Below are positions 39,418 through 64,000 of a DNA stretch of 64,000 nucleotides, one piece after another (the stretch's first letter is position 1; each line of letters begins with the position of its first letter). The DNA comes from Candidatus Poribacteria bacterium (GTDB lineage: Bacteria; Poribacteria; WGA-4E; WGA-3G): NCBI GenBank assembly GCA_965205015.1, contig OZ242029.1, forward strand, positions 768,001 to 832,000. Direction: 5' to 3'. The notes beneath the pieces were generated by a model. It was not told the DNA's origin, made no database searches, and was given only the letters and a program-made list of their open reading frames with translations. Both the position numbers and the translations under genes were made by a program.

Positions 39418-41232
39418 TCACCGGTACTTTTCCGACTGCATTCGGTAGAGTGTCGCATACCTACCCCCTTTGTTCATCAACTGCTCGTGGGTGCCTTCCT
39501 CAAGAATTTTCCCTGCGTCAATGACGAGAATCCTATCAGCCATGCGAACCGTCGAGAAGCGATGCGAGATTAATAACGTTGTCACATTCTGCGTGAGCAT
39601 TTTGAAGCGTTGAAAGAGGGCGTATTCGGATTCCGCATCGAGTGCGGCCGTCGGCTCATCGAGGATTAAGATTGCTGCGTTTCTCATAAAGGCACGCGAG
39701 ATGGCGATTTTCTGCCACTCTCCGCCGGATAAATCGGTGCCGCCGTCAAAATGCCGTCCAAGCAAGGTCTGGTACCCCTCAGAAAGTTGTGAAACGACGG
39801 TATCTGCTTGACCCTGTTCCGCTGCCTGAATCACCGCGGACTCGTTGTTGACCTGCTCCACATTCCCAACACCGATATTTTCCCCAGCGGTGAGGAAAAA
39901 GTGTGAAAAATCCTGAAAGACGGGGGCAATTTTCTGGCGTAAACTGTCAAGGCGATACTGATGTAAAGGGATGCCATCAACGAATATTTGTCCTGCTGTT
40001 GGGTCATAAAAACGGCAGAGAAGTTTTACAAGCGTCGTTTTGCCGGCACCGTTTTCGCCAACGATGGCGAGCGTCTCTCCAGCTTTTATTGAGAAGGAAA
40101 CATCACTGAATACGGTGTTCTCACATCCCGGATACCGAAAAGAGACGTTCCGGAACTCAACGTCTCGATTAATGTGAGAAAACGTCTGGGGTGCCTCGGC
40201 GGTTTTCAGGGTAGGTGTCAGCTCGAAGAAGGACGATAACGTATGAAATTCTATTGTGGAACCGGTTAGATTCCCAACTTTCAGAGTTAAGTCCCAGAAC
40301 GCCGCTTGCAAACCATTCACAATCGAAAAATACATCGCTACCTCACCGACGGTAATCCTTCCTTGAAACGCGACCAGCACAACGTAGATGTAGAGAAGTG
40401 TGAGTCCGATGCCGTGTAAAAGTGTGAAAAGCAAGGTAATTTTGGTGTGTGAGATTCTCACAGACAGGAATCGTTTGAAAAGCGTGTCAAAAAGTTCACG
40501 ATACCGGTTGGTAAAGTAGGCACCCAGGTTAAAGAGTTTTATCTCTTTTACGGACTCAATATTAAAAAGGAGTCCATGGAAGTATCCCAATTGACGGGAT
40601 TCTGGCAGCTGCTCCCAACGGGTGTCAAAGGCGTATTGGTGATGGCGATACTCTGCGAAGAGGTGGGGTAAAGCAACAAGAACCATCGCAATTGGGATGA
40701 AGGGGCTGATGGTTATCGTCAAACTTAAGAGGGAGAAGAGCGTAATGCCGTTGCTAATCGTGGATGACAGCACCCAGAGCATACCTTCAAGGAGCGTTGA
40801 GTTTTCTCTGAGGAAGCGGAGTTGATCGTAAAATTTACTTTCATCAAAGTATGCTAGTCCGGTGAGTTGCGATGCCTTTTTCATGACCTGCTCATCTATA
40901 TCGGCAATGAGCAGGTCTGAAAGCGTAGAGCGGACAACCTCTGCTGCTGGATTCATAACGAAGGGGAGGATGTTACAGAGGATACAACCGATACCCAGAA
41001 GGATCGTTGTCATCTCCAATGGGGTTCCGGTCTTTACGATCGCTACGACATCGTTGACGAGGTGATTGAGCAGCAACGCGGCAGTCGCCGGAAGGCTGCT
41101 GGAAATAATAAGAAATAGCAAAAGTAAAGAGGTGCGTTTAGCGGAAGTCTGCCAAGCGAAGGCAAGGACCTTCAGACTCATTTTCACAGTATCAACGACG
41201 AGTGTTTTCCAAGAAAGTAGTTTTTTAAACAT
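39418..41232 (-). CDS. ABC exporter, fused TMD-NBD
   Basis: GENGAGKTT, LSGGEWQK and ILDEPT motifs; start MFKKLL overlaps the upstream stop. Confidence 0.92.
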   Translation of the reverse strand: MFKKLLSWKTLVVDTVKMSLKVLAFAWQTSAKRTSLLLLFLIISSSLPATAALLLNHLVNDVVAIVKTGTPLEMTTILLGIGCILCNILPFVMNPAAEVVRSTLSDLLIADIDEQVMKKASQLTGLAYFDESKFYDQLRFLRENSTLLEGMLWVLSSTISNGITLFSLLSLTITISPFIPIAMVLVALPHLFAEYRHHQYAFDTRWEQLPESRQLGYFHGLLFNIESVKEIKLFNLGAYFTNRYRELFDTLFKRFLSVRISHTKITLLFTLLHGIGLTLLYIYVVLVAFQGRITVGEVAMYFSIVNGLQAAFWDLTLKVGNLTGSTIEFHTLSSFFELTPTLKTAEAPQTFSHINRDVEFRNVSFRYPGCENTVFSDVSFSIKAGETLAIVGENGAGKTTLVKLLCRFYDPTAGQIFVDGIPLHQYRLDSLRQKIAPVFQDFSHFFLTAGENIGVGNVEQVNNESAVIQAAEQGQADTVVSQLSEGYQTLLGRHFDGGTDLSGGEWQKIAISRAFMRNAAILILDEPTAALDAESEYALFQRFKMLTQNVTTLLISHRFSTVRMADRILVIDAGKILEEGTHEQLMNKGGRYATLYRMQSEKYR

Positions 41233-43075
41233 CGTAATGTTCCGCCTGGAGGGTGTAGAGTCGGGCATACAACCCATTGTCCTTCATCAATTCCTCGTGA
41301 CTCCCTTCTTCGATCACTTTTCCGTCATCAAGGACAAGGATTCGTTCTGCCATACGAACAGTTGACATGCGATGAGAAATCAGGACGGTTGTTTTCTCTT
41401 TTGTTAATTCCTGAAATCGGGTATAGATATCGTGCTCACTGCGGACATCAAGGGCTGCGGTGGGTTCATCAAGGATGAGGAGCTGTGCGTTTCGGGTGAG
41501 GGCGCGAGCGAGCGCGATTTTTTGCCATTGTCCACCTGAGAGTTCTGTGCCGTCTTCAAATTGACGCGAGAGGACAGTTTCATACCCGTTTGGGAGTTGG
41601 TTAATAAAATCAGCACCTGCTTTTTCAGCCGCTGCTTTGATGTCGTTTAATTCAGAAAGTCGGTCAACATTGCCGAGTCCGATATTTTCCTGTACACTGA
41701 GTTGATATTTGAGAAACCCCTGATCGACGACACTCATTTGCGAGCGTAGATCGTCCAGATCATAGTGGTGGATAGGAACATTATCGAGATGAATGTCTCC
41801 GTCACTCGGGTCATACATTCGTGTGATTAATTTGACTAAGGTTGTTTTTCCGGCACCGTTTTTTCCAACGATGGCAACGGTTTCCCCAGGGTAAATATTC
41901 AAGGAGATCCCGTCCAAAATCTTTCGGTCTGTGTTGGGGTAAGTAAAGGAGACGTTTCTCAATTCAATGCCTTTTTGAAAGGGACGGGGTGCCGGTTTGG
42001 CAAATTCTTTGGGGACCCTTTTAATGACCGGCTTTCTTTTTAAAAAGTCATAAAGGTGTGTTAAAAAGCTTCCGGTGCGGTGCATAAATGCGAAGTTGAA
42101 GAGGGAAGTGCTCATGCTCGTCCAGATGACGAGAACAGCACCCGCGTAGGCAGTGAGTTCACCGACACTTAACTCGCCGCCGATCGTCTGTCGAAAAAGG
42201 GTGCCATAAACGGCACACACAGCAGCACCGCCTAATAAAGCATAGAGGGAAAGCGTACGAAACTCACGCTTTCGGACAGACCAGAGTACGCCGAGAATCC
42301 GAGTAAAGATGCGCCGATACTTTCCGAAAAAGAAATCGCGTAGCCCAAAAATACGCACATCTTTCGCGGTATCGTGAGAGAGGAACTGATTTCTGAAGTA
42401 GTCGAGTTTTCGGGCTTCGGGTGCTTGAAATTGAAGCGCGACTCCAAAAAGGTTTGCGTATTTATAGTGCGCTAATGCATAGGGTAATGCACAAAGCATT
42501 AGAAGGAGGGGTGCCAGTGGATGAAATAAGGATAGGAAGATGGCTACGGAAATCAACGCCCAAAAATCACTTCCTGCCTGAAAAGCGTAGATAACTAAAT
42601 CGGCACTACTTCCTTCGACATGCCGAACCCGTTGGAGTTGGTCATGCAGTTTTGGATCTTCAAAATGTGCAATGCCTGGATGTTGGTTGGCAGTTTCCAT
42701 GACGAGGAGTGCCACATACCGACGCATCTTATCGCCAAGGACGCTTTTCACCAGAAGGAAAATCGGTTCCATTATTTGCATGACGACCGTGGCGAGTGCT
42801 AATCCAATCAAGAGTGGCGCCGCGTCCCAAAAACGCTGATCGTTCGTATCAGCGATAGCGATGACCATATTAATAGCATCCTTGCTTAAGTAAAGGATGA
42901 AGACCGGTAACACACCTTGGATGAGCATTAAGAAAAACAGGACTACTGTCTCAACTTTACCTGCGCGCCATATCATGCTGAAGGCGCGGAAAATCGCTGT
43001 GTATACTGGACCCCATTCTTTTACGGGAGGATTCCACTCTTCAAGTTGGATATCAGGTTCTTTGTGTTGTTCCAT
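41225..43075 (-). CDS. ABC exporter, fused TMD-NBD (likely heterodimer partner)
   Basis: GKNGAGKTT, LSGGQWQK and ILDEPT motifs. Confidence 0.92.
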   Translation of the reverse strand: MEQHKEPDIQLEEWNPPVKEWGPVYTAIFRAFSMIWRAGKVETVVLFFLMLIQGVLPVFILYLSKDAINMVIAIADTNDQRFWDAAPLLIGLALATVVMQIMEPIFLLVKSVLGDKMRRYVALLVMETANQHPGIAHFEDPKLHDQLQRVRHVEGSSADLVIYAFQAGSDFWALISVAIFLSLFHPLAPLLLMLCALPYALAHYKYANLFGVALQFQAPEARKLDYFRNQFLSHDTAKDVRIFGLRDFFFGKYRRIFTRILGVLWSVRKREFRTLSLYALLGGAAVCAVYGTLFRQTIGGELSVGELTAYAGAVLVIWTSMSTSLFNFAFMHRTGSFLTHLYDFLKRKPVIKRVPKEFAKPAPRPFQKGIELRNVSFTYPNTDRKILDGISLNIYPGETVAIVGKNGAGKTTLVKLITRMYDPSDGDIHLDNVPIHHYDLDDLRSQMSVVDQGFLKYQLSVQENIGLGNVDRLSELNDIKAAAEKAGADFINQLPNGYETVLSRQFEDGTELSGGQWQKIALARALTRNAQLLILDEPTAALDVRSEHDIYTRFQELTKEKTTVLISHRMSTVRMAERILVLDDGKVIEEGSHEELMKDNGLYARLYTLQAEHYDV

Positions 43076-43149
43076 GTTATCGTAAACCTACAATCATTTA
43101 TATCCCAGAAGATTGACAGAGTTATAGGTTTCCCATCCTTGTGTAAATG

Positions 43150-44415
43150 TTAATTCTTGGTGTGGAGCGCGTCGACGGGTGAAAGCTGAGCTGCCCGCAT
43201 CGCAGGATAGACTCCGAAACCCACGCCCATGACAATCGAGAAAATAACAGAAGTCAATATCCACGGAAGGGAGAGGACGACGGGCCATGCCTCCACAACT
43301 GGTACAATCCGCACCGCAAGCCATGCCATTCCGTGTGCTGCGCCCCAACCGCCCGCGATCCCGAGCACCCCGCCACACAAACAGAGACAGATCGATTCCG
43401 TTAAAAATTGACAAAAAATGTGAATCCGTTTCGCACCTACGGATCTCCGTAAACCTATCTCCCGTGTCTTTTCACCGACAGAGACGAGACAGATATTCAT
43501 GATGCCGACGCCGCTGACGAACAGCGAGAAACCCGCAAGACTGCCCAAGGTGATTTTTATCACTTTTTGAATGTGGAAAAGTCGGTGAGCCGTCAGTTTC
43601 GCTATCCAAACGCCGATAAACTCATCTTTCCCTCGGTGTCTTTTACGCAGGGTGTTTTTAACAGAATCAATAATACTGTCCATCTCTGCCCCTTTTCTAA
43701 AAAAGACGAGCAAGTAGTCAACGTAACGAAAGCCTTTCACCCGTTGCTGATAGGTTGTCAACGGCACAGAAATCGCATCATCTAAAGAATACGTGTCGCT
43801 GAGGCTCATGCCTTTTGTTGTCATCACCCCGATAACCCGTAACCGAATCTGCGATTGCCGCCAGTGATACCGAACCTTCACCTCTTGTCCAATGGGCGAT
43901 GTTTTCCCAAAAAGCTCACTGGCGGTATTCGCACCGAGGACACAGACCTGCTTCGCATTTTTGATATCGCTGTCGGAAAAGAATCTACCGGCGTGAACTT
44001 CCCATCCCATGCCGAGAGAGTAGTCCGCTGTGATACCTTCTAAACGCGCTTTCGCTTGATTCCCGTTTCGGCTGCTCACAAAGGTGTTGAAGTCTTCTAC
44101 TTTAGGCAAGACGTACAGCACATCGGGGCATTCTGCCTCAACTGCAGAAGCGTCCTCAAGGGTATATCGCTCTGTCGTACGTCGGGCGAGCCGCGGCCCC
44201 TTCCAAATAGTCGTCCGTGTCCAGAATGCGATCTGGTTGGCACCCCCCATCATTTCAAGGTTTTGAGCGATGATACGTTTCCCGCCATCGCCGATAGCGA
44301 TCATGCACAGCACACCCGCAATCCCGATGAAAATGCCGAGAATGGACAATCCAGCACGGAGTCTATTTTGCGCGACGGGCTTCACACCCGCGATGATAGC
44401 ATCACGAAATTTCAT
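43150..44415 (-). CDS. MacB/FtsX-type ABC permease
   Basis: RAGLSILGIFIGIA, GRFFSDSD and GIMNICLVSVGEKTREIGLRRSVGA motifs. Confidence 0.92.
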   Translation of the reverse strand: MKFRDAIIAGVKPVAQNRLRAGLSILGIFIGIAGVLCMIAIGDGGKRIIAQNLEMMGGANQIAFWTRTTIWKGPRLARRTTERYTLEDASAVEAECPDVLYVLPKVEDFNTFVSSRNGNQAKARLEGITADYSLGMGWEVHAGRFFSDSDIKNAKQVCVLGANTASELFGKTSPIGQEVKVRYHWRQSQIRLRVIGVMTTKGMSLSDTYSLDDAISVPLTTYQQRVKGFRYVDYLLVFFRKGAEMDSIIDSVKNTLRKRHRGKDEFIGVWIAKLTAHRLFHIQKVIKITLGSLAGFSLFVSGVGIMNICLVSVGEKTREIGLRRSVGAKRIHIFCQFLTESICLCLCGGVLGIAGGWGAAHGMAWLAVRIVPVVEAWPVVLSLPWILTSVIFSIVMGVGFGVYPAMRAAQLSPVDALHTKN

Positions 44416-46529: not shown

Positions 46530-47936
46530 CTAAATTTCAATGCGTACAAATGCCAGGAACGCTCCGGAGAAAAAAACAACGAAAAATAGCGTTAACAACA
46601 GCAAATTCATCGCCGCTGTGTTGAAATCACGACCAAAGTTGCGTGTGTCTTCAAATTTGGGAACTGCTTCTGGATTGACGGGTTTCTGCGATACCCCCTC
46701 GCGAACACCAATGATATGAAGACTCTCCGGATCCGCTCTATCGGTATCAACAATGAATTCGCGAAATTGTTGAGCGTAGGATTGAACATTCTCTAAGAAT
46801 TGCAGGTGTCGCTCAAAACCGGTTCCAGCGAACGACTCAAGGAGATGCTCCACAATTGTGACAGGTGAAAGACGGGTGATGGTGCGCGCCCGGTTCACTT
46901 GAGAAATCCGCCGTTTTAAGTGTTCTTCGCGCAAGCGTTCCCGCTGTTCTGCGTCTTGGGTAACATACTCGCCTGACAATTGTAATTTTTTTCTTTCATC
47001 TTCGCGGACTTCATGCCAATGAGTGTCGAATTCCTCCCTACGTTCCCAAAATCCAAGACTCGTCCTGAACGATGAAGAGCGTCCCTCGGATGAAGAGTGC
47101 CCGGCGATCGAAGCAAGTGTACTGGGCATAAAAACAACAAGCGTGACCCAAGCTAACAGAAGTATCACAAGGCTTACTGCGCTCCGTTGCACACGCGCCG
47201 ATACCAATAAACCTAATGCAAGAAAAAGACAGGTGTACAGGAGCGCAATAAAGTAGATGACACCTAAACGTCCCCACGCATCTGCGCTAAGGTAAACATC
47301 ACTTGACATAGAGATTACCAACAGATTCACCAACACGGCAAGCGTAAATGGAATACTCATGCTTACCAACGCCCCTAAAAATTTGCCAATCAGCACAGTG
47401 TGCCGCGGAATCGCATTTGCCAACATTAATCGCAATGTACCCTGTTCACGTTCATTGGAGATGGAATCGAAGGTGAACAGGAGCGCGAGGAGACTTAAGA
47501 CATAGCCGATGATAAAACCCCAGTCCACTTTGGTAACCTCTGGGTCTAGGTTGTCCCGATTGGGGGTGGCAGATGGATATCCGAGTGTCCATAAGCCCTC
47601 TAAGCCACGTTCCTGCCAACTCCAGCTCTGAAAACTACTGACATGTGCGGACAAAAACGCTTCACCGCGCGCTGCGCAGAAGTGGAGGGGGGATGGTTTT
47701 TTGTGAAGATCCCCAGGTCCCTTTTGTGCGAGTGTATAGAAACTTGCGTTGGCATGAGACTTTAAACGGTTTTGATGTGCAGCGACATTCTCGCTATACT
47801 TCTGAACCCGCTCTGGATGCTCTCGGAGATGCAGAACGGCATTGGTCAGCATCAAACCCAAGAGCAGGACTGTTGCAAGCGCGAATCGGAGGCTATTGAG
47901 ATTATCATAGAGTTCGCGTTTTACGATATGCCACAT
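46530..47936 (-). CDS. ABC-2 type permease (type B of the pair)
   Basis: FDSISNEREQGTLRLMLAN...LIGKF motif; paralog of 59038..60489. Confidence 0.88.
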   Translation of the reverse strand: MWHIVKRELYDNLNSLRFALATVLLLGLMLTNAVLHLREHPERVQKYSENVAAHQNRLKSHANASFYTLAQKGPGDLHKKPSPLHFCAARGEAFLSAHVSSFQSWSWQERGLEGLWTLGYPSATPNRDNLDPEVTKVDWGFIIGYVLSLLALLFTFDSISNEREQGTLRLMLANAIPRHTVLIGKFLGALVSMSIPFTLAVLVNLLVISMSSDVYLSADAWGRLGVIYFIALLYTCLFLALGLLVSARVQRSAVSLVILLLAWVTLVVFMPSTLASIAGHSSSEGRSSSFRTSLGFWERREEFDTHWHEVREDERKKLQLSGEYVTQDAEQRERLREEHLKRRISQVNRARTITRLSPVTIVEHLLESFAGTGFERHLQFLENVQSYAQQFREFIVDTDRADPESLHIIGVREGVSQKPVNPEAVPKFEDTRNFGRDFNTAAMNLLLLTLFFVVFFSGAFLAFVRIEI

Positions 47937-48065: not shown

Positions 48066-49577
48066 TTACACTTCACTTTTGACGAAAATCAGAAATATCA
48101 GGATGAAAATAACGACATTCATCATGAGCAAGATGCCTACATCCGGCAAGGCTCGCTTAGCATTTGTGTTCACATTGCCCCTTTGAAAAGCAAATTCTGG
48201 AAGAATGCTCCAATCCGCTGCGCCCTGGTCTGAGGAGAACCACTGTCGAGATCCAAATGCCTCTTTATCGTAGAGAGCGTCGATCACTTCCTGTCTGTAT
48301 CGTCTCGCTGCGTCGAAGAAATCTCTGACACCGTGCAAGTCAGTATCGGTCCATGCTTGTGTTGCAGCATCATACAGCCCCACGGGTGAAAGTTTCAAAT
48401 AGAGTCGCTTCACATTTGCCGGGTGAATGAAGATATCCTCCAGCGCAGGTTTTCGGACAAGCCAGGTCTGGTCGGCCGTACGGATAATCAGCGAACCGAG
48501 GAAACGGAAATGACTCTGGGCGTGAGGTATCTTGTGTTCCTCTTTCTCATCAAACCCTTCAAACGCCAAGATACCTTCAAAGGAGTATTTTAGCGTCCGG
48601 GGGTCACCCCAGAAGTAAGCGTAAGGGTTGGATCCACTGCCTCTTAATCCAAGATTCCAATCTATTCCTGGGAAAGCGTCGGTAGCGAGGAAATGCCTCC
48701 GTTCTCTCTCAAATTCTCCTTCCCACATCTGTTTAATTTGACTAAAAGCGGAGGCAGCACGCGCCTGCGGTGCTTCAGAGCGGGGGATCACAGCAAGAAT
48801 CGTATTCGGATAGATGAGGACTAAAAACCCCCAAACGAACATCGAGAGCATCAATGCAGTACTCGTTCGACACGTCGCCGCCGAAATCAGCAGTCCGATG
48901 AGGTAAAACACTGACAGATACGCAACGGATGCCAAAAGAATCCCGCCGATCCGTAAAAAATCATCGGTGTTTAGAGAAATGGAAGGGGTCGTCGTCAGCA
49001 AGATGACGGCGAGGAGAAGGCTTATTAGCAATGGCACGAGTAGGCAGATCATCGCACTGATGTATTTGGCAAGCAGGACATGCCCGCGACGGACGTGCGA
49101 CATCAAGACGAGACGTAATGTGCCACGCTCGTATTCTCCCGCGAGGGTATCGTAGGCGAAAATCAATGCCAATAAGCTCAGGATCACCTCAAAGATAAAA
49201 ACAATATCCATGGAAGCAAACATATCCATAAACGGATTATCCGCCCCATGCATTCCGGCATCCCACAGCGATGGAACATACGTATGTGATACCTGTACCT
49301 GGTTTCCAACCCGTTTATCGTATCCAGCATTGAAAATGCTCAATGGATTGGGGGGACGGTCGATACGCACTTCACCTGCTGAATAGGTTTTTTTCGCCTG
49401 CATCTGTCGCTGATGCGTTTTGACAGCGTCGTTGTAGTCCATCAATCGCTGTTCATAATCCTTAAGAAGCACAGCAGTATTGGCGACAACAAGCAACAAC
49501 GTAATAAAGACAGCTGCAGCGAAGCGGAACGTCATCAGGTTGTCGAGGAGTTCTCGGCGGATAAGCGTTGTTAACAT
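48066..49577 (-). CDS. ABC-2 type permease (type A of the pair)
   Basis: RPPNPLSIF and AYDTLAGEYERGTLRLVL motifs; paralog of 60639..62201. Confidence 0.88.
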   Translation of the reverse strand: MLTTLIRRELLDNLMTFRFAAAVFITLLLVVANTAVLLKDYEQRLMDYNDAVKTHQRQMQAKKTYSAGEVRIDRPPNPLSIFNAGYDKRVGNQVQVSHTYVPSLWDAGMHGADNPFMDMFASMDIVFIFEVILSLLALIFAYDTLAGEYERGTLRLVLMSHVRRGHVLLAKYISAMICLLVPLLISLLLAVILLTTTPSISLNTDDFLRIGGILLASVAYLSVFYLIGLLISAATCRTSTALMLSMFVWGFLVLIYPNTILAVIPRSEAPQARAASAFSQIKQMWEGEFERERRHFLATDAFPGIDWNLGLRGSGSNPYAYFWGDPRTLKYSFEGILAFEGFDEKEEHKIPHAQSHFRFLGSLIIRTADQTWLVRKPALEDIFIHPANVKRLYLKLSPVGLYDAATQAWTDTDLHGVRDFFDAARRYRQEVIDALYDKEAFGSRQWFSSDQGAADWSILPEFAFQRGNVNTNAKRALPDVGILLMMNVVIFILIFLIFVKSEV

Positions 49578-52251: not shown

Positions 52252-52334
52252 TTTTTTCTCCTTATTAGCGTAGGACTTGCATTTGAATTCGGAAGTGGCA
52301 ATTTTACTGAAATTTTACATCCGTTGATTTAAGT

Positions 52335-52362
52335 GACGCATCTTAGATGTCAAAAGGTTGCA
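52335..52362 (-). promoter_or_regulatory. ECF-type promoter variant TGCAAC-N18-CGTC
   Basis: Upstream of the small peptide and STAS genes; matches the array motif with a 1-nt longer spacer. Confidence 0.5.
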
Positions 52363-59037: not shown

Positions 59038-60489
59038 CTATACCTCCGAACGCAGGAAGACGAGGAAGGCTCCTGAAAGCGACACACCGAGCAGTAAAAT
59101 GAGTAACAGAATATCGACTATAGCGGGATTGAGCGTCTCCTGAAAAGACAACTTATCCTCAAACATTGGGATAGTCTCTGGTAAGACGGACCTTTCCGAC
59201 ATGCCTTTCCGGACACCCACGAAATGAAGGCTCTCTGGATCCGCCCGATCCATTTCAACGATGAAATTTCGGAAGTGTCGGATATGAAGGCGGCAGTGTT
59301 CTAAGAATTGCAAATGCCGATTAAAGCCTGTGCCTGCCATGGATTCAAGGGCATATTGGACAACCGCTGCAGGAGAGCATCGGGTTATCTGTCTTGCATG
59401 CAGGACTTGCGCACTTTGCGCAGCGAGATGCTGGCGACTCAGCCGCTCCCGAATCTCCATGTCTTTGTTAACGAACGCCTGTTGGATCTCCAATTCTGAA
59501 GTGTCTACCCCCGCAACTTCCTCCTGAGAGGTTTCTGCGGATTGACGGCGTTCTCTTAAAGTCTCCCTTTTATCCAGGAAATCGCTCCGAATTTGGTCGA
59601 AGGCGGTCCCCTTTGTCCTCTGAAATTGATGGTGCGTTTGAATCGGAGGCATCCATCTTGTGGAGAGTGTGCCGAGGGTTGACGGCATAAACACCACGAC
59701 AGTCACCCAGATGAGCAACAGGACAACCAGACTTAACCGACTTTCCCGAGTCATCGCCGAGATAATAAGCCCAATTGCGACGAAGATACCAGCATAGCAA
59801 GAAGCAATCAGCACGATCAGTCCTAAACGCCCCCAGTCTGCGCCGCTGAGCTGCGTCCAACTCTCGGTAGAAATGATGGCGAGATTGAATAACACGGCAC
59901 AATAGAAGGCAATGAGGACCGTGATGAGGGAGCCAAGGAACTTACCCATTAATAGAGTCGGGCGCGAAATCGAATTGGCAAGACACAGCCGCAGCGTCCC
60001 GCGTTCTCGTTCTCCGGAGAGCGCGTCAAAGGTAAACAGGAGCGGCATGAAAGAGAGCAGATAGGTCACAATAAAGACCCAATCGATCCCCGTGGCAGTG
60101 GGACGAAGATTGCTAATCGCCTCCATATTCAGACGTGGAACGCCCATCGACCAAATATAGGCAAGCCCGTATAACCGCCAGAAACCACCACTCACGCTTT
60201 CGTCCGGTAGTAAGGCGTCCCCGCCATCGGCGATGAAGGCGAGCGATGCGGGGCGTTTGTAAAGCTTACCGGGTCCCTTGTGTAGCAGTTCATACAACTG
60301 CGTTCGGGATTTCAATTCGGTCTGAGATGCGTTAACCTTCTCGGAATACTTTCGAACCCGTTCCGGATGGGTTCGAAGATGCACAACGGCATTGGTTACC
60401 ATTAATGCTACGAGGATGAACGTGGTTAAGGCAAAGCGGAGACTCGTGAGGTGGTCTAAAAGTTCGCGTCTGACAACATGCCAAATCAT
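59038..60489 (-). CDS. ABC-2 type permease (type B)
   Basis: FDALSGERERGTLRLCLAN motif; paralog of 46530..47936. Confidence 0.88.
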   Translation of the reverse strand: MIWHVVRRELLDHLTSLRFALTTFILVALMVTNAVVHLRTHPERVRKYSEKVNASQTELKSRTQLYELLHKGPGKLYKRPASLAFIADGGDALLPDESVSGGFWRLYGLAYIWSMGVPRLNMEAISNLRPTATGIDWVFIVTYLLSFMPLLFTFDALSGERERGTLRLCLANSISRPTLLMGKFLGSLITVLIAFYCAVLFNLAIISTESWTQLSGADWGRLGLIVLIASCYAGIFVAIGLIISAMTRESRLSLVVLLLIWVTVVVFMPSTLGTLSTRWMPPIQTHHQFQRTKGTAFDQIRSDFLDKRETLRERRQSAETSQEEVAGVDTSELEIQQAFVNKDMEIRERLSRQHLAAQSAQVLHARQITRCSPAAVVQYALESMAGTGFNRHLQFLEHCRLHIRHFRNFIVEMDRADPESLHFVGVRKGMSERSVLPETIPMFEDKLSFQETLNPAIVDILLLILLLGVSLSGAFLVFLRSEV

Positions 60490-60638: not shown

Positions 60639-62201
60639 CTACACTTCAACTTTGATAAAAATCAAAAATGTCGCCATGAACAGGACGATATTGGTGCATA
60701 ACAGCAAAAACAGTTCAGGTAGGGCGCGATGCGCGTTGATGCCGATTTCTGCTCGCTCGAAGTGAAAACGAGGGAGGACCGACCAGTCTATATCCGCTTG
60801 ATTTGGAGCAAACCACTGCAGGCTCGCGAACGCATCTCTCTCATGAAAGGTCCCAATGAGGGTGCGGCGGTACGCCTGCGCGGTTTGAATATAATCCACC
60901 ATGCTGTTTAAATCGGTGCCTGCCCATGCGGCGGTAGCAAACGTATAAAGGCTTGCCGGACTGAACTTCATGAGACGCTCATCCCATTGTGCTTGATGGA
61001 GGGTGGTCTGTGCTACCAACTGCTGGCCGACGAAACCGACTTCGTCGGCATTCCGGATGTGCAGGGAGGCGGCGAATGCATAATAACGGCGTAAGTGTGG
61101 CACTAAAGGGTGCGCTGTATCTTTCAGTTCAAGGTTAACCCGAGGGAAGTCCCCAAGGAAGAAATATCCTGCTCCACTAAAGAGACCTGAAAACGCTTCA
61201 GAATCTGAAAATATCGGAGACTCCCCCTTAAGCGGACTATTGGCTAAGAACCGGTGTCGTTCTCTATCCGCCGCTTCCCGAATCTGCGCTATCTGCTGCT
61301 CGGTGGATCTTTTTTTTCCACGCATGTCCGCGTCTGGATTCAAGGCAAAGCGGCTCCAATTTGGATAGACGAGCACTAAAATCACCCATAAGAACATACA
61401 GAGCATCAAGGAGGTAGCGGCACGACGGGCTATCGCGGAAACGAGCAGACCGATCAGATAGAAAACCGACAGATAGACGATTGTCATTAAAACAATGCCG
61501 CCAATTCGTAGAAAATCACTTCCACTGAATTGCAAGGAACGCGCGAAGGAACACTGAATCAGGGCAAGCAATAGACTCATCAACACGGGGAGTAGCAGGC
61601 AAACCATCGCCGCAATATATTTAGCAAACAGCACATTTCCTCGCCCGACGGGATGTGAGAGCACCAAACGCAAGGTCCCTGTCTCCCAATCTCCCGCAAT
61701 CGCGTCATAAGCGAAAAGCAGAGCGATCAGACTCAACACAACCTGAAAGATAAAGACCAGGTCTATCTGTGAAAAGAGATACAGATAGGGGTTATTTATC
61801 CCGAGCGGTGCCCCTGGACTTGAGAGGGACGGGACGCTGCCAGACACCCACTGTTCTTCCTCGGGTCTGACATCAACGATGGGATTTGAGAGGGCTGGCA
61901 CACTGTCAAACGCTATATCAAGCTCACTGCCAAAACGCGTTTCCAAGCCCGCGCTAAAGAGGCTCAGGGGGTTCGGAGGACGCTGAACCTTTAACTTTAA
62001 GACCGAATAGGTGGGGGTTGCCTCGACCTTCTCGCGATTTACCGCTTCTTTCTGACTATAGTCGGCGAGACGCTCTTCATGTGCACCGATTAAGACGAAC
62101 GTATTGGCAACGACAAGTAAGAGTGTAATGACCACCGCAGCAAAAAAACGCGCACTCATCAGATGAATCAAGAGTTCCTGGCGTATCAGGGTCCGTAACA
62201 T
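60639..62201 (-). CDS. ABC-2 type permease (type A)
   Basis: RPPNPLSLF and AYDAIAGDWETGTLRLVL motifs; start MLRTLIRQE by analogy with 48066..49577. Confidence 0.88.
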   Translation of the reverse strand: MLRTLIRQELLIHLMSARFFAAVVITLLLVVANTFVLIGAHEERLADYSQKEAVNREKVEATPTYSVLKLKVQRPPNPLSLFSAGLETRFGSELDIAFDSVPALSNPIVDVRPEEEQWVSGSVPSLSSPGAPLGINNPYLYLFSQIDLVFIFQVVLSLIALLFAYDAIAGDWETGTLRLVLSHPVGRGNVLFAKYIAAMVCLLLPVLMSLLLALIQCSFARSLQFSGSDFLRIGGIVLMTIVYLSVFYLIGLLVSAIARRAATSLMLCMFLWVILVLVYPNWSRFALNPDADMRGKKRSTEQQIAQIREAADRERHRFLANSPLKGESPIFSDSEAFSGLFSGAGYFFLGDFPRVNLELKDTAHPLVPHLRRYYAFAASLHIRNADEVGFVGQQLVAQTTLHQAQWDERLMKFSPASLYTFATAAWAGTDLNSMVDYIQTAQAYRRTLIGTFHERDAFASLQWFAPNQADIDWSVLPRFHFERAEIGINAHRALPELFLLLCTNIVLFMATFLIFIKVEV

Positions 62202-62266
62202 CGTTTTCCGTTGCCTCAATTCCACGGGTTCTACTACCGAATTAGATATTTTCCAGGGATAGGTGA

Positions 62267-64000
62267 TTAGGACTTCAAGAGCATCGGCATGATGAGGTGG
62301 ATATGTCCTTCCTCACCAACCGGCTTAACAATCACAGGATCCAACGCGCTCGAGAACTCCAATGCCAAAGACGCCGTTCCAATGTGCGTGAGCGCCTCTA
62401 TCAGCATCCGAGCATCGAGACCGACACGGATACTTCCAGTGCTGGACACCACTGCTAAGGTTTCCTGCTGCTCATCTATCTCAGAATCCCTCGGCGAAAT
62501 CCGAATCCGTTGTTCATCTATCTCTAAACAGACCGTCGGCGAAATCCGAATCTGTTGTTCATCTATCTCTAAACAGAGAGCAGGGCATTTCGGATCCGAA
62601 AATGCTGAAACCTGACGTGTTGCACGCAAAATCGGCGCTTTCTGCACAACTGTACGCATCTGAGGAGACTTTGGAAAGAGTTTCTCATACTTCGGATATT
62701 CACCGTCTACCAACTGCGCCGTCAACGTGGTTCGCTCATCCGCGAAAAGAATCTGGTTCGCAACGCGTGAAACCCGTACCTCCAAGGAATCAGCAAACGT
62801 TCGTTCAATATCTTTGACGGCTTTGAGCGGGACGATAAACCCATCGTTATCCTCAGACAACCTTAAGGGTTCACACCGTGCGATGGCAATCTGCTTGCCG
62901 TCGCATCCAACGACTTCGGTCCTGTCCTCAAGCAGGTTAAAATAGAGCCCGTTTAGAAAAGTCCGCCGGACTTTCTCCGTGGACGCAGCACATTCGGTTT
63001 TGTGGAGGATCGACCGCAGGATCTCTCCATCAATCGCAAATGCTCCCGGGTCAACAGAAGGGAGTTGTGGAAATTCCTCATCCGCAAGCCCGACGATTTT
63101 GTAAACGTCATCTCCAGAAGTGATTCTAACCCGACCGTCCGCTGTCTTTGTCACGTCTATCGGTTTCTCCGCGGGCCACGCTTTAACGATATCCCCTAAT
63201 TTTTGGGCGGGGACAGTGATCGCTCCCGCTTCTTTGACTGTCCCTTCAACCTTCATTCTGATGCCAATTTCCGTGTCCATCGCCATGCATTCAATCGTGC
63301 TTCCTTCCGCACGGATGAGAACGTTTGAGGGAATAGGTGAGGTATCCTGCCCACTCGTGACACGCTGCAGCATTTGTAAAGAAGTTAAAAGCGCATCCCT
63401 TTCAAAAGTTAATTTCATTCCAAAACCCCTATTCAAATATATTTGGGCGCGACGTTCGGGTTCAATTGTGAGGTCTAAGGCTTCCTGAATCATGAATTCA
63501 TACTGCTTTAACTGTTGTCGCGCACGTCGAAGCCGACTTTTAATCGTGTTTTCTGACACACCTAAAAAGTTACTTATTTCTGTGTAGGTCATCCCCTCAA
63601 GGTAGTGAAGCGTGATAGTTGTCCGATTGCTCTCCTTCAACCTCGCGAGCAGCTTTTCGACCACGTCGCGCCGCGCTTCAGCGAAGGTCCTCGCGTGTTC
63701 TGTCGCGATATACTGGGAATACGCCTCTGTCTCTACTTCAGAGATGTCAGTGTTTTCCAGCGGCTCAGTGTGCCGCTGGTTTTTTCGGAGCCAAGCGATA
63801 CAGAGACGATCCGCAATCACATAAACCCACCGTAGAAACCGCGTCGGATCTTCCAAGGTCTCTAATTTGTGATAGACTCGCAGGAAGGTTTCCTGCGTAA
63901 TATCTTCGGCGATATGGAAATCCCCAATTTTCCGCCATGCGAGCGCGTGAACCTGTTTCTGGTACTTTCTAACCAACCTTGAAAAGGCAGTTTCATCACC
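62267..64000 (-). CDS. ECF sigma factor fused to a full-length DNA polymerase III beta sliding clamp (DnaN-like); 5' end lies outside the window
   Basis: Frame open to the window edge (GDETAFSRLVRKY); sigma2/sigma4, then MKLTFERDALL...P.IPSNVLI...D.EIGI...ITVPAQKL...EEFP...FLNG...GEYPKY...LIMPM. Confidence 0.9.
   Translation of the reverse strand, partial: GDETAFSRLVRKYQKQVHALAWRKIGDFHIAEDITQETFLRVYHKLETLEDPTRFLRWVYVIADRLCIAWLRKNQRHTEPLENTDISEVETEAYSQYIATEHARTFAEARRDVVEKLLARLKESNRTTITLHYLEGMTYTEISNFLGVSENTIKSRLRRARQQLKQYEFMIQEALDLTIEPERRAQIYLNRGFGMKLTFERDALLTSLQMLQRVTSGQDTSPIPSNVLIRAEGSTIECMAMDTEIGIRMKVEGTVKEAGAITVPAQKLGDIVKAWPAEKPIDVTKTADGRVRITSGDDVYKIVGLADEEFPQLPSVDPGAFAIDGEILRSILHKTECAASTEKVRRTFLNGLYFNLLEDRTEVVGCDGKQIAIARCEPLRLSEDNDGFIVPLKAVKDIERTFADSLEVRVSRVANQILFADERTTLTAQLVDGEYPKYEKLFPKSPQMRTVVQKAPILRATRQVSAFSDPKCPALCLEIDEQQIRISPTVCLEIDEQRIRISPRDSEIDEQQETLAVVSSTGSIRVGLDARMLIEALTHIGTASLALEFSSALDPVIVKPVGEEGHIHLIMPMLLKS
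62491..62577. repeat. 45-bp tandem duplication inside the DnaN-like domain
   Basis: 62491-62532 and 62536-62577 differ at one base; encodes CLEIDEQ(Q/R)IRISP twice. Confidence 0.9.

Follow-up and report, generated by a model that had tools for sequence, protein, structure and literature searches.

To our knowledge, coupling of transcription to a sliding clamp is known only from phages, from T4 and, since a 2025 preprint, from Mu, and there no covalent bond connects the activator to the clamp. Here we describe a gene that joins an ECF sigma factor to a DnaN beta clamp, the ring protein whose usual task is to keep DNA polymerase attached to DNA. The gene (sigma-DnaN) lies at the end of a stretch of 64,000 nucleotides, called the window, from a sponge-associated Candidatus Poribacteria bacterium (contig OZ242029.1, positions 768,001 to 832,000 of the forward strand). 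The T4 clamp gp45 encircles DNA and tethers RNA polymerase, which turns the promoter search into one-dimensional scanning, as described in the accessible part of PMC7892883. According to the same text, the gp45/gp55/gp33 system couples a promoter-specificity factor physically to a sliding clamp, and sigma-DnaN does likewise. The T4 coupling is non-covalent and relies on the C-terminal clamp-binding motifs of gp55 and gp33, whereas a peptide bond connects sigma region 4 to the clamp N-terminus in sigma-DnaN. The T4 clamp is a replicative trimer of two-domain subunits, and the clamp of sigma-DnaN is a three-domain beta-type paralogue that stands apart from the replicative clamp. The T4 clamp loads on DNA; in sigma-DnaN the genes show the covalent coupling, and loading and activation are putative.

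The phage Mu activator MuC, a member of the Mor/MuC family, enlists the beta clamp of its host in late transcription and resembles sigma-DnaN in that a beta clamp is recruited for transcription by host RNA polymerase (accessible part of PMC12867686). As portrayed there, MuC acts alongside sigma70 as an activator and attaches to the housekeeping clamp by clamp-binding motifs, whereas sigma-DnaN is a sigma factor fused to a dedicated clamp in a cellular genome. ECF sigma factors that bear extensions at the C-terminus, as presented in the available text of the review PMC8999054, share with sigma-DnaN the presence of sigma regions 2 and 4 only and a conserved fused C-terminal domain. Other members of the family to which sigma-DnaN belongs have a membrane helix and WD40 or other sensor domains, a trait found among the ECF extension groups in that text. 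The clamp lies outside the extensions enumerated there (SnoaL-like, TPR, Cys-rich, WD40-like, and ZAS with a membrane helix). Group ECF57 is marked by two cysteines in the same source, whereas the sigma part of sigma-DnaN has one. The fused clamp also resembles GriR and MypR in being a second, diverged dnaN copy besides the housekeeping gene; GriR and MypR are free-standing and located within biosynthetic gene clusters in the accessible part of PMC10817943, whereas the fused clamp is joined to a sigma factor. A literature search found no description of a sigma-DnaN fusion, although the supplementary tables of the ECF classification might list the architecture. An ECF sigma factor with a fused extension is already known, and the novelty, within the literature searched, is that the extension is a sliding clamp.

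An ECF sigma factor and a beta clamp share one open frame

The sigma-DnaN gene was translated with table 11, and the frame continues from sigma region 4 into MKLTFER, the start of the clamp, with zero stops (Table 1). Since table 11 leaves the frame open, an alternative genetic code was rejected as unneeded. Relatives start 14 residues upstream of the first visible residue (MRNDD..), which places ~14 N-terminal residues beyond the window end. Regions 2 and 4 are the sole sigma regions and the Pfam matches include Sigma70_ECF, as expected for an ECF sigma factor. The NCBIfam model TIGR02937 (Sigma70-ECF) scored 100.2 bits against a cut-off of 42.9, and none of the narrower NCBIfam sigma models reached its cut-off among the 25 best families for the fusion protein. 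All three clamp domains of DnaN were matched. The dnaN equivalog model TIGR00663 scored 193.9 bits against a cut-off of 137.65, which is ~85-100 bits under the 277 and 291 bits of free Poribacteria clamps. The DNA_pol3_beta C match covers only profile positions 36-120 because a 15-residue tandem duplication interrupts domain III. The duplication repeats the CLEIDEQ.IRISP beta strand, and the predicted local distance difference test score (pLDDT) of the structural model falls below 50 over residues 483-495.

AlphaFold2 was used to model the fusion from a 93-row alignment. The model had a mean pLDDT of 74.4, with clamp blocks mostly at 80-94, and was poorly defined at residues 170-192, which make up most of the linker, and at sigma residues 77-136. 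Foldseek matched the clamp part to solved DnaN clamps with E ~1e-30 and target-normalised template modelling (TM) scores of 0.81-0.89 for 34 of the 35 listed chains; the exception was a longer clamp-MutL fusion chain (TM 0.74). A homodimer prediction with two copies of residues 195-577 scored 0.00 against a mark of 0.42, was run without controls, and is evidence neither for nor against a dimer. No membrane helix was predicted in the fusion, PADLOC defence models gave zero matches for the fusion and five neighbours, and an ESM Atlas search with the fusion returned sigma-factor clusters only.

A preliminary description of this sequence had proposed an in-frame ECF sigma-DnaN fusion, and the single open frame and the Pfam and NCBIfam matches bear this out. 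It had also taken the stretch from MKLTFER to LIMPM for a complete beta clamp, which agrees with the three Pfam domains and the confidently predicted fold. Three possible objections had been raised with it: a stop codon between sigma region 4 and MKLTFER, a lack of homologous fusions elsewhere, and a clamp domain that cannot fold. The frame has no such stop, Poribacteria relatives carry the fusion, and AlphaFold2 and Foldseek give a clamp fold. Taken with the evidence that follows, the sequences make it very probable that the gene encodes a functional ECF-type sigma factor, from a family greatly expanded in Poribacteria, with a captured extra beta clamp as its C-terminal extension.

Table 1. 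Positions of sigma-DnaN, its parts and other features of the window
Feature	Position	Strand	Remarks
ORF, ECF sigma-DnaN fusion	62267..64000	minus	stop codon 62267-62269; open 5' at window end; 577 residues visible
Sigma region 2	63773..63976	minus	residues 9-76; Pfam Sigma70_r2 PF04542, 1.1e-14
Sigma region 4	63503..63664	minus	residues 113-166; Sigma70_r4_2 PF08281, 3e-15 (113-164); PF04545, 8.4e-12
Linker	63419..63502	minus	residues 167-194 (~28); last codons N-R-G-F-G; pLDDT <50 over 170-192
Shine-Dalgarno-like AGGGG	63426..63430	minus	7 nt 5' of the Met195 ATG; GGAGG or GGAGA in most relatives
ATG of Met195	63416..63418	minus	first codon of MKLTFER (residue 195); ancestral start of the captured dnaN; possible internal translation start
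Clamp domain I	63059..63418	minus	residues 195-314; Pfam PF00712 (DNA_pol3_beta N), 1.4e-25; model
Clamp domain II	62690..63034	minus	residues 323-437; DNA_pol3_beta central, 3.3e-17; holds CDGKQI
Clamp domain III	62270..62689	minus	residues 438-577, C-terminus LIMPMLLKS (LIMPM = residues 569-573); DNA_pol3_beta C, residues 489-573, 2.3e-12
Tandem duplication, 45 bp, 1.9 copies, in frame	62491..62577	minus	+15 residues within domain III
ABC-2 family permease with DUF3526	60639..62225	minus	41 nt downstream of the fusion; Pfam PF12679, 4.4e-32
Second ABC-2 family permease	59038..60489	minus	Pfam PF12679, 1.5e-29
Sigma-FtsZ fusion, 419 residues	57676-58935	minus	ECF sigma regions 2 and 4, then FtsZ/tubulin GTPase; Pfam Tubulin, 1.1e-44
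Sigma gene, unassigned C-terminal extension, 598 aa	49615-51411	minus	then ABC-2 permeases 48066-49577 and 46530-47936
Sigma gene, unassigned C-terminal extension, 566 aa	44516-46216	minus	then MacB/FtsX permease and two ABC exporters (39418-44415)

The fusion recurs across Poribacteria

The 120 best of 2857 matches to the fusion (8000 scored candidates) all contained sigma region 4 and the three clamp families. These clusters were 69-94% identical to the window fusion and 118 of them were 569-591 aa long. At 50% clustering, the best 150 matches included a single full-length fusion cluster. Five named proteins are found among the 120 best clusters and all are annotated as DNA polymerase III subunit beta, an annotation that obscures the sigma half and raises dnaN counts artificially. 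Sixteen loci with the full fusion were found in GTDB species genomes, every one Candidatus Poribacteria and several of them complete chromosomes. Among the matches listed for 150 Poribacteria genomes there were 48 full-length in-frame copies (59-79% identity) in 44 genomes, all 48 without an internal stop, and a class with 45% identity was present in 3 further genomes, so at least 47 of the 150 carry the fusion.

Contigs from two runs of one study were identical to the window over 62267-63920 or 62267-63932. A contig from another study spans 62834-63920, crosses the junction, and differs by 3 substitutions and 0 indels; of the 2 substitutions checked, one is synonymous and one is S216N. The junction was read in 21 related fused genes, 17 full-length and 4 truncated, and 0 stops were found between sigma region 4 and the clamp ATG. 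A frameshift or assembly chimera was rejected because the same fusion occurs in the 120 best clusters, in many genomes and in the second-study contig.

The 15-residue duplication of domain III was seen in 4 of 121 fusion proteins (the window protein, P0002, P0006 and P0079) that are not mutual closest relatives, and it may be recurrent or polymorphic. Some genomes have additional, truncated sigma-clamp genes encoding 455-469 residues (L093:7851-9236 on the minus strand, L014-L016, P0122 and P0135). Most are limited to clamp domains I and II, whereas P0135 matches the central and C-terminal ones, and two ABC-2 permeases lie next downstream of the gene in L093. The truncated genes may be functional two-domain forms or decaying copies.

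The captured clamp is a paralogue of free dnaN

Paralogue counts of dnaN were taken from the genomes of relatives. Four fusion-bearing chromosomes (G001-G004) have two or three free dnaN genes each, and the fused clamp is not the replicative one because these genomes keep them. The free clamps that coexist with the fusion are 50-59% identical to the fused clamp. By type, identity to the fused clamp is ~59% for type A (370 aa), ~54% for type B (367 aa) and 41-45% for type C; another Poribacteria clade, examined in five genomes, has no fusion and just one or two free dnaN per genome, of type C. The free dnaN that coexist with the fused clamp have canonical residues and lower ratios of nonsynonymous to synonymous substitution (dN/dS), which also speaks against the fused clamp as the replicative processivity factor. 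A maximum-likelihood tree, which had been proposed as a comparison with the housekeeping dnaN, placed the fused clamps in a clade of their own (SH-aLRT 100, stem 0.18) beside free type A and within the Poribacteria clamps. The fusion gene sits among ABC transporter genes. A housekeeping dnaN behind a sigma gene with a lost stop was rejected on the basis of the free dnaN copies, the locus context and the tree. In genome G001, neither free dnaN is next to dnaA (~8 kb read on each side).

The free dnaN genes of G001-G004 are of two kinds (loci L078-L086, L090 and L091), and type B is tandem-duplicated in G003 and G004. Cleft positions 174-176 and 362 vary in the type B free clamp and its dN/dS is above that of type A. 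Type B may be a specialised clamp too.

The junction DNA was compared with the start of free type-A dnaN. The free gene starts with ACGGAGATTTTGGA followed by ATGGAATTAACTTTTGAA, and the fused junction reads AACGGAG(G/A)TTTTGGA followed by ATGAAATTAACTTTT. Because the junction DNA matches the DNA upstream of free type-A dnaN, the linker codons N-G-G/D-F-G are assigned to an old ribosome-binding region. The match indicates that the sigma frame was extended across the 5' untranslated region preceding a type-A-like dnaN paralogue and that N-G-G-F-G before Met195 is the former ribosome-binding region. In 15 of 17 fused genes the stretch -14..-5 before the junction ATG contains a Shine-Dalgarno-like 4-mer, compared to 8 of 145 other internal ATGs. 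GGA-GGT dominates at the junction even though usage of the four Gly codons is roughly even. The junction window also ranked 1st of ~440 in synonymous-codon conservation (0.88 against a gene mean of 0.66), a result that is not decisive alone with other windows at 0.85-0.87. A free copy of the fused clamp is probably made as well, because the Shine-Dalgarno sequence and the ATG are conserved at the junction.

A second sigma-DnaN class (L099:7004-8746 and L100:6985-8736) is 45% identical to the window fusion. Its sigma module is that of the sigma-FtsZ fusion (Table 1) and is 25% identical to the module of the window sigma-DnaN. The second-class clamp groups with free type A, apart from the first fused clade (SH-aLRT 99 and 100), and keeps ATDGKRLA. 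The second-class junction reads AAGGAGGGTTTTGGA followed by ATG, with AAGGAGG retained ahead of the ATG. These features indicate that the clamp was captured a second time by a different sigma module. Two separate captures argue that the sigma-clamp linkage is itself useful. They also make a clean example of a fusion born by read-through of a neighbour's ribosome-binding site, twice and with two sigma modules.

Selection was estimated as dN/dS by the Nei-Gojobori method. The values for the fusion were 0.13 for the sigma part, 0.53 for the linker and 0.26 for the clamp; those for free clamps were 0.06 (type A), 0.13 (type B) and 0.06 (type C), all from small samples. The ratios indicate that both halves of the fusion are under purifying selection. 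The linker varies in sequence in the relatives and is never interrupted.

Residues kept and replaced in the fused clamp

An alignment of 39 fused clamps was made from the window clamp, 28 others (every fourth of the 120 best clusters, two being dropped without a recognisable junction) and 10 from loci. The comparison set was 18 free Poribacteria clamps, 21 other bacterial clamps and E. coli. In the E. coli clamp, positions R24, R73, R80, R152, Y153 and K198 contact DNA or act in loading, and D150A is inviable, according to the accessible part of PMC5042465. Fused clamps keep R152 (39/39), K198 (38/39) and Q15 (38/39). The six pore helices have 11.6 basic residues per subunit in fused clamps, 12 in E. 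coli and 13-14 in free Poribacteria clamps. In DnaN a hydrophobic cleft between domains II and III, together with the C-terminal tail, serves clamp-binding motifs and the loader. Cleft residues L155, L177, P242, V247, V360, M362-P363-M364 and L366 are also kept.

CDGKQI had been equated with TDGHRL of E. coli, and the alignment agrees: residues 366-371 (62888-62905) align with T172-L177, as they do with PDB entries 6deg and 7rzm. The accompanying proposal of an altered clamp-binding pocket held in part. T172 is replaced by C in 20/39 and R176 by Q in 37/39, both in the fused clade only, and R365 at the C-terminus is replaced by L, K, S, I and others in that clade. H175K is common to fused clamps and free type A, however, and the hydrophobic cleft is kept. 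The pattern suggests a fused clamp that is specialised and not obviously disabled.

Possible mechanisms for a clamp-fused sigma factor

The most likely mechanism, proposed tentatively and by analogy with T4 gp45 and gp55, is a DNA-tethered sigma factor. It is ranked first because selection has preserved the fold, R152 and K198, as well as the pore charge and the cleft. The clamp part would still form a ring placed around DNA and the flexible linker of ~28 residues would hold the sigma factor there, with RNA polymerase finding the promoters of the family by sliding. Clamp loading would be required for sigma activity, which would hence be tied to replication or repair intermediates. If a free clamp copy is made, rings could carry one sigma factor or two. 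The tethered sigma factor would be a covalent, cellular counterpart of T4 gp45 tethering gp55 and RNA polymerase, and of Mu MuC acting with the host clamp. If true, a sigma factor bound permanently to its own clamp would offer a cellular and genetically simple test of a clamp delivering RNA polymerase to promoters, and a system for asking whether transcription can be tied to replication intermediates.

Several results weigh against the tether. Replacements confined to the fused clade affect R24 (Q in 30/39), R73 (E, Q or G in 36/39), R80 (E in 13/39), D150 (K in 30/39) and Y153 (R or Q in 36/39, with an adjoining one-residue insertion). The DnaN ring is closed by a head-to-tail homodimer, and F106, I272 and L273 presumably form the core of its interface, with I272 and L273 having a role in dimerisation, from work on E. 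coli. Positions 272/273 are L-L in 18/18 free Poribacteria clamps (I272/L273 in E. coli), and the 39 fused clamps have A15 L11 P7 S5 at 272 and F11 V11 R9 L7 at 273. The fused pairs covary with position 106 by subclade. The fused clamp is 2 to 4 times less constrained than free clamps (0.26 vs 0.06-0.13). Truncated domain I+II sigma-clamp matches, which could not form a beta-type ring, are present in 7 of the 150 Poribacteria genomes. No DNA-related Pfam domains were found in the genes adjoining the fusion in the window and L003, and a DNA tether leaves the sigma-FtsZ parallel unexplained. Dimerisation, loading and DNA contact by the fused clamp are themselves hypothetical.

The main rival, possible though doubtful, is a sensor that works off DNA. 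The clamp domain would be a cytoplasmic input domain, like the SnoaL, TPR, Cys-rich or WD40 extensions of other ECF sigma factors. Whether sigma regions 2 and 4 engage RNA polymerase would be set either by a peptide or small molecule that the retained cleft binds or by how the domain is assembled, and the ABC transporters would be the response. The sigma family argues for this proposal. The sigma part has >100 paralogous clusters (48-70% identity, 210-1377 residues). A scan of 50 family proteins found mostly WD40 extensions, the rest being BNR/sortilin, PD40/S9 peptidase, transglutaminase, redoxin, Big_5 and HTH_20. A region-4 motif was used to select 68 sigma paralogues from 149 proteins. A single membrane helix is predicted in 58 of them, at residues 211-224 in 57, with WD40, BNR, PD40/S9, transglutaminase or redoxin domains after it. 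The helix is absent from the clamp fusions and the HTH_20 forms. The closest paralogues have a soluble HTH_20-containing extension and, like the fusion, an ABC-2 permease next downstream. The clamp thus occupies the position where the family normally has its anchor and sensor.

Other evidence is also consistent with the sensor. DNA-contact and interface residues are relaxed, while the cleft hydrophobics are kept and T172C and R176Q have become fixed within the clade. ABC exporters and ABC-2 permeases are in the operon, regulatory extensions occur in at least 26 ECF groups in the available text of PMC8999054, and sigma-FtsZ is a parallel. However, a pure ligand-binding domain would not need R152, K198, Q15 and most pore lysines and arginines, which are conserved. 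The ligand or partner is purely hypothetical, and the available text of the review has no clamp extension (0 occurrences of 'clamp').

It is improbable that the locus is two genes in effect, with the internal Shine-Dalgarno sequence and ATG making a free, specialised clamp (a spare or an inhibitor-resistant one, like GriR/MypR) and read-through from sigma being a tolerated by-product of losing a stop codon. Conservation of both signals would fit, as would the several dnaN paralogues in Poribacteria and the self-resistance that second DnaN copies confer in griselimycin and mycoplanecin producers (accessible part of PMC10817943). The state of the linker argues against it because neutral read-through would soon regain a stop, whereas the variable linker is open in 17/17 full-length relatives and the 48/48 listed full-length matches are stop-free. 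The linker dN/dS is 0.53, not 1, and sigma-clamp fusion arose twice with two sigma modules.

A target-mimic function is an equally long shot. Sigma-DnaN and sigma-FtsZ might be copies of hub proteins wired to sigma factors, and an inhibitor bound to the mimic might make the sigma factor turn on the adjoining ABC exporters and peptidase. Phage proteins and natural products commonly attack the mimicked hubs, the clamp cleft and FtsZ. Such a role would be compatible with the kept cleft and the transporter context, with the relaxation of DNA-contact and interface residues, and with the two parallel fusions. If true, target-mimic sensors would do in bacterial transcription what integrated decoys do in plant immune receptors, and they would suit a sponge symbiont amid bioactive compounds.

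Mixed rings, suggested in the preliminary description, are very unlikely. The fused subunit would pair with the housekeeping clamp and either park the sigma factor at replisomes or poison clamps until release, and free clamps of 50-59% identity are present in the same genomes. The divergence of fused positions 272/273 from an invariant L-L, with covariation at 106, fits insulation better than pairing. Virtually no weight is given to a sequencing error, a pseudogene in decay or a chimeric assembly: the record behind the window is of metagenome type and some genomes have truncated and broken copies, but the architecture is repeated in complete chromosomes from several metagenome-assembled genome (MAG) projects, independent contigs are concordant, both halves appear to be under purifying selection and the fold is confidently predicted.

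Fusions with FtsZ

The sigma-FtsZ fusion is 3.3 kb downstream of sigma-DnaN, with the FtsZ C-terminal domain unmatched, and is conserved at L003 (16006-17220). Full-length matches (query 1 to ~390 or beyond) were listed for 34 of 61 Poribacteria genomes searched. The fusion exists in a short form (~400-450 aa) and in long forms with open frames of ~570-670 and 1350-1450 aa. A DnaN-FtsZ fusion of 706 residues was also seen in two Poribacteria MAGs (L095:8001-10121, P0125; partial in L096). It has three clamp domains followed by Tubulin and FtsZ_C, and a sigma-54 activator gene comes after it. Sigma-DnaN, sigma-FtsZ and DnaN-FtsZ form a triangle of pairwise fusions. The presence of sigma-FtsZ and DnaN-FtsZ in the same phylum suggests that cell-cycle proteins have been rewired into regulation more widely than has been described.

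Neighbouring genes and a shared promoter-like motif

The gene order is ABC exporter(s), fusion and two ABC-2 permeases, and the order of fusion and permease is repeated in L003 and L092. The fusion and the first permease (Table 1) are probably in one operon. Genes beside the fusion in the window and L003 encode ABC transporters and proteins of unknown function, and the ABC transporter genes are the likely output of sigma-DnaN. No separate anti-sigma gene was seen beside the fusion and no biosynthetic gene cluster next to it.

In relatives, a promoter-like motif precedes the fusion gene or the preceding ABC exporter and consists of AGAATTATGCA(A/C)C, ~17 nt and CGCGTCACTATA. The same bipartite motif precedes many of the sigma paralogues. 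The 10-mer core GCGTCACTAT occurred 57 times on the sigma strand vs 2 on the other in 1.67 Mb of loci, all of which were picked for holding such sigma genes, and it is accompanied by an unselected upstream consensus, AGAATTATGCAAC. ECF promoters have an AAC-containing -35 and a CGT-containing -10 element, and a copy before the sigma factor's own operon signifies autoregulation. The bipartite motif (GCAAC, ~17 nt, CGTC) looks like an ECF promoter. The 13-mer promoter core had no match in the window at <=2 mismatches, and the upstream region of the fusion lies beyond the window. Many paralogues with one promoter motif and differing sensor domains would make an unusual network of many inputs and one promoter type.

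Across loci L001-L092 the sigma-family motif reads AGAATTATGCAAC(C), ~17 nt, CGCGTCACTATA. A looser form, GCAACC-N16-GCGTCA, is present in the window at 52334-52361 on the minus strand, upstream of the 598-aa sigma gene. The final 25 kb of the window form a series of cassettes of sigma-extension and transporter genes.

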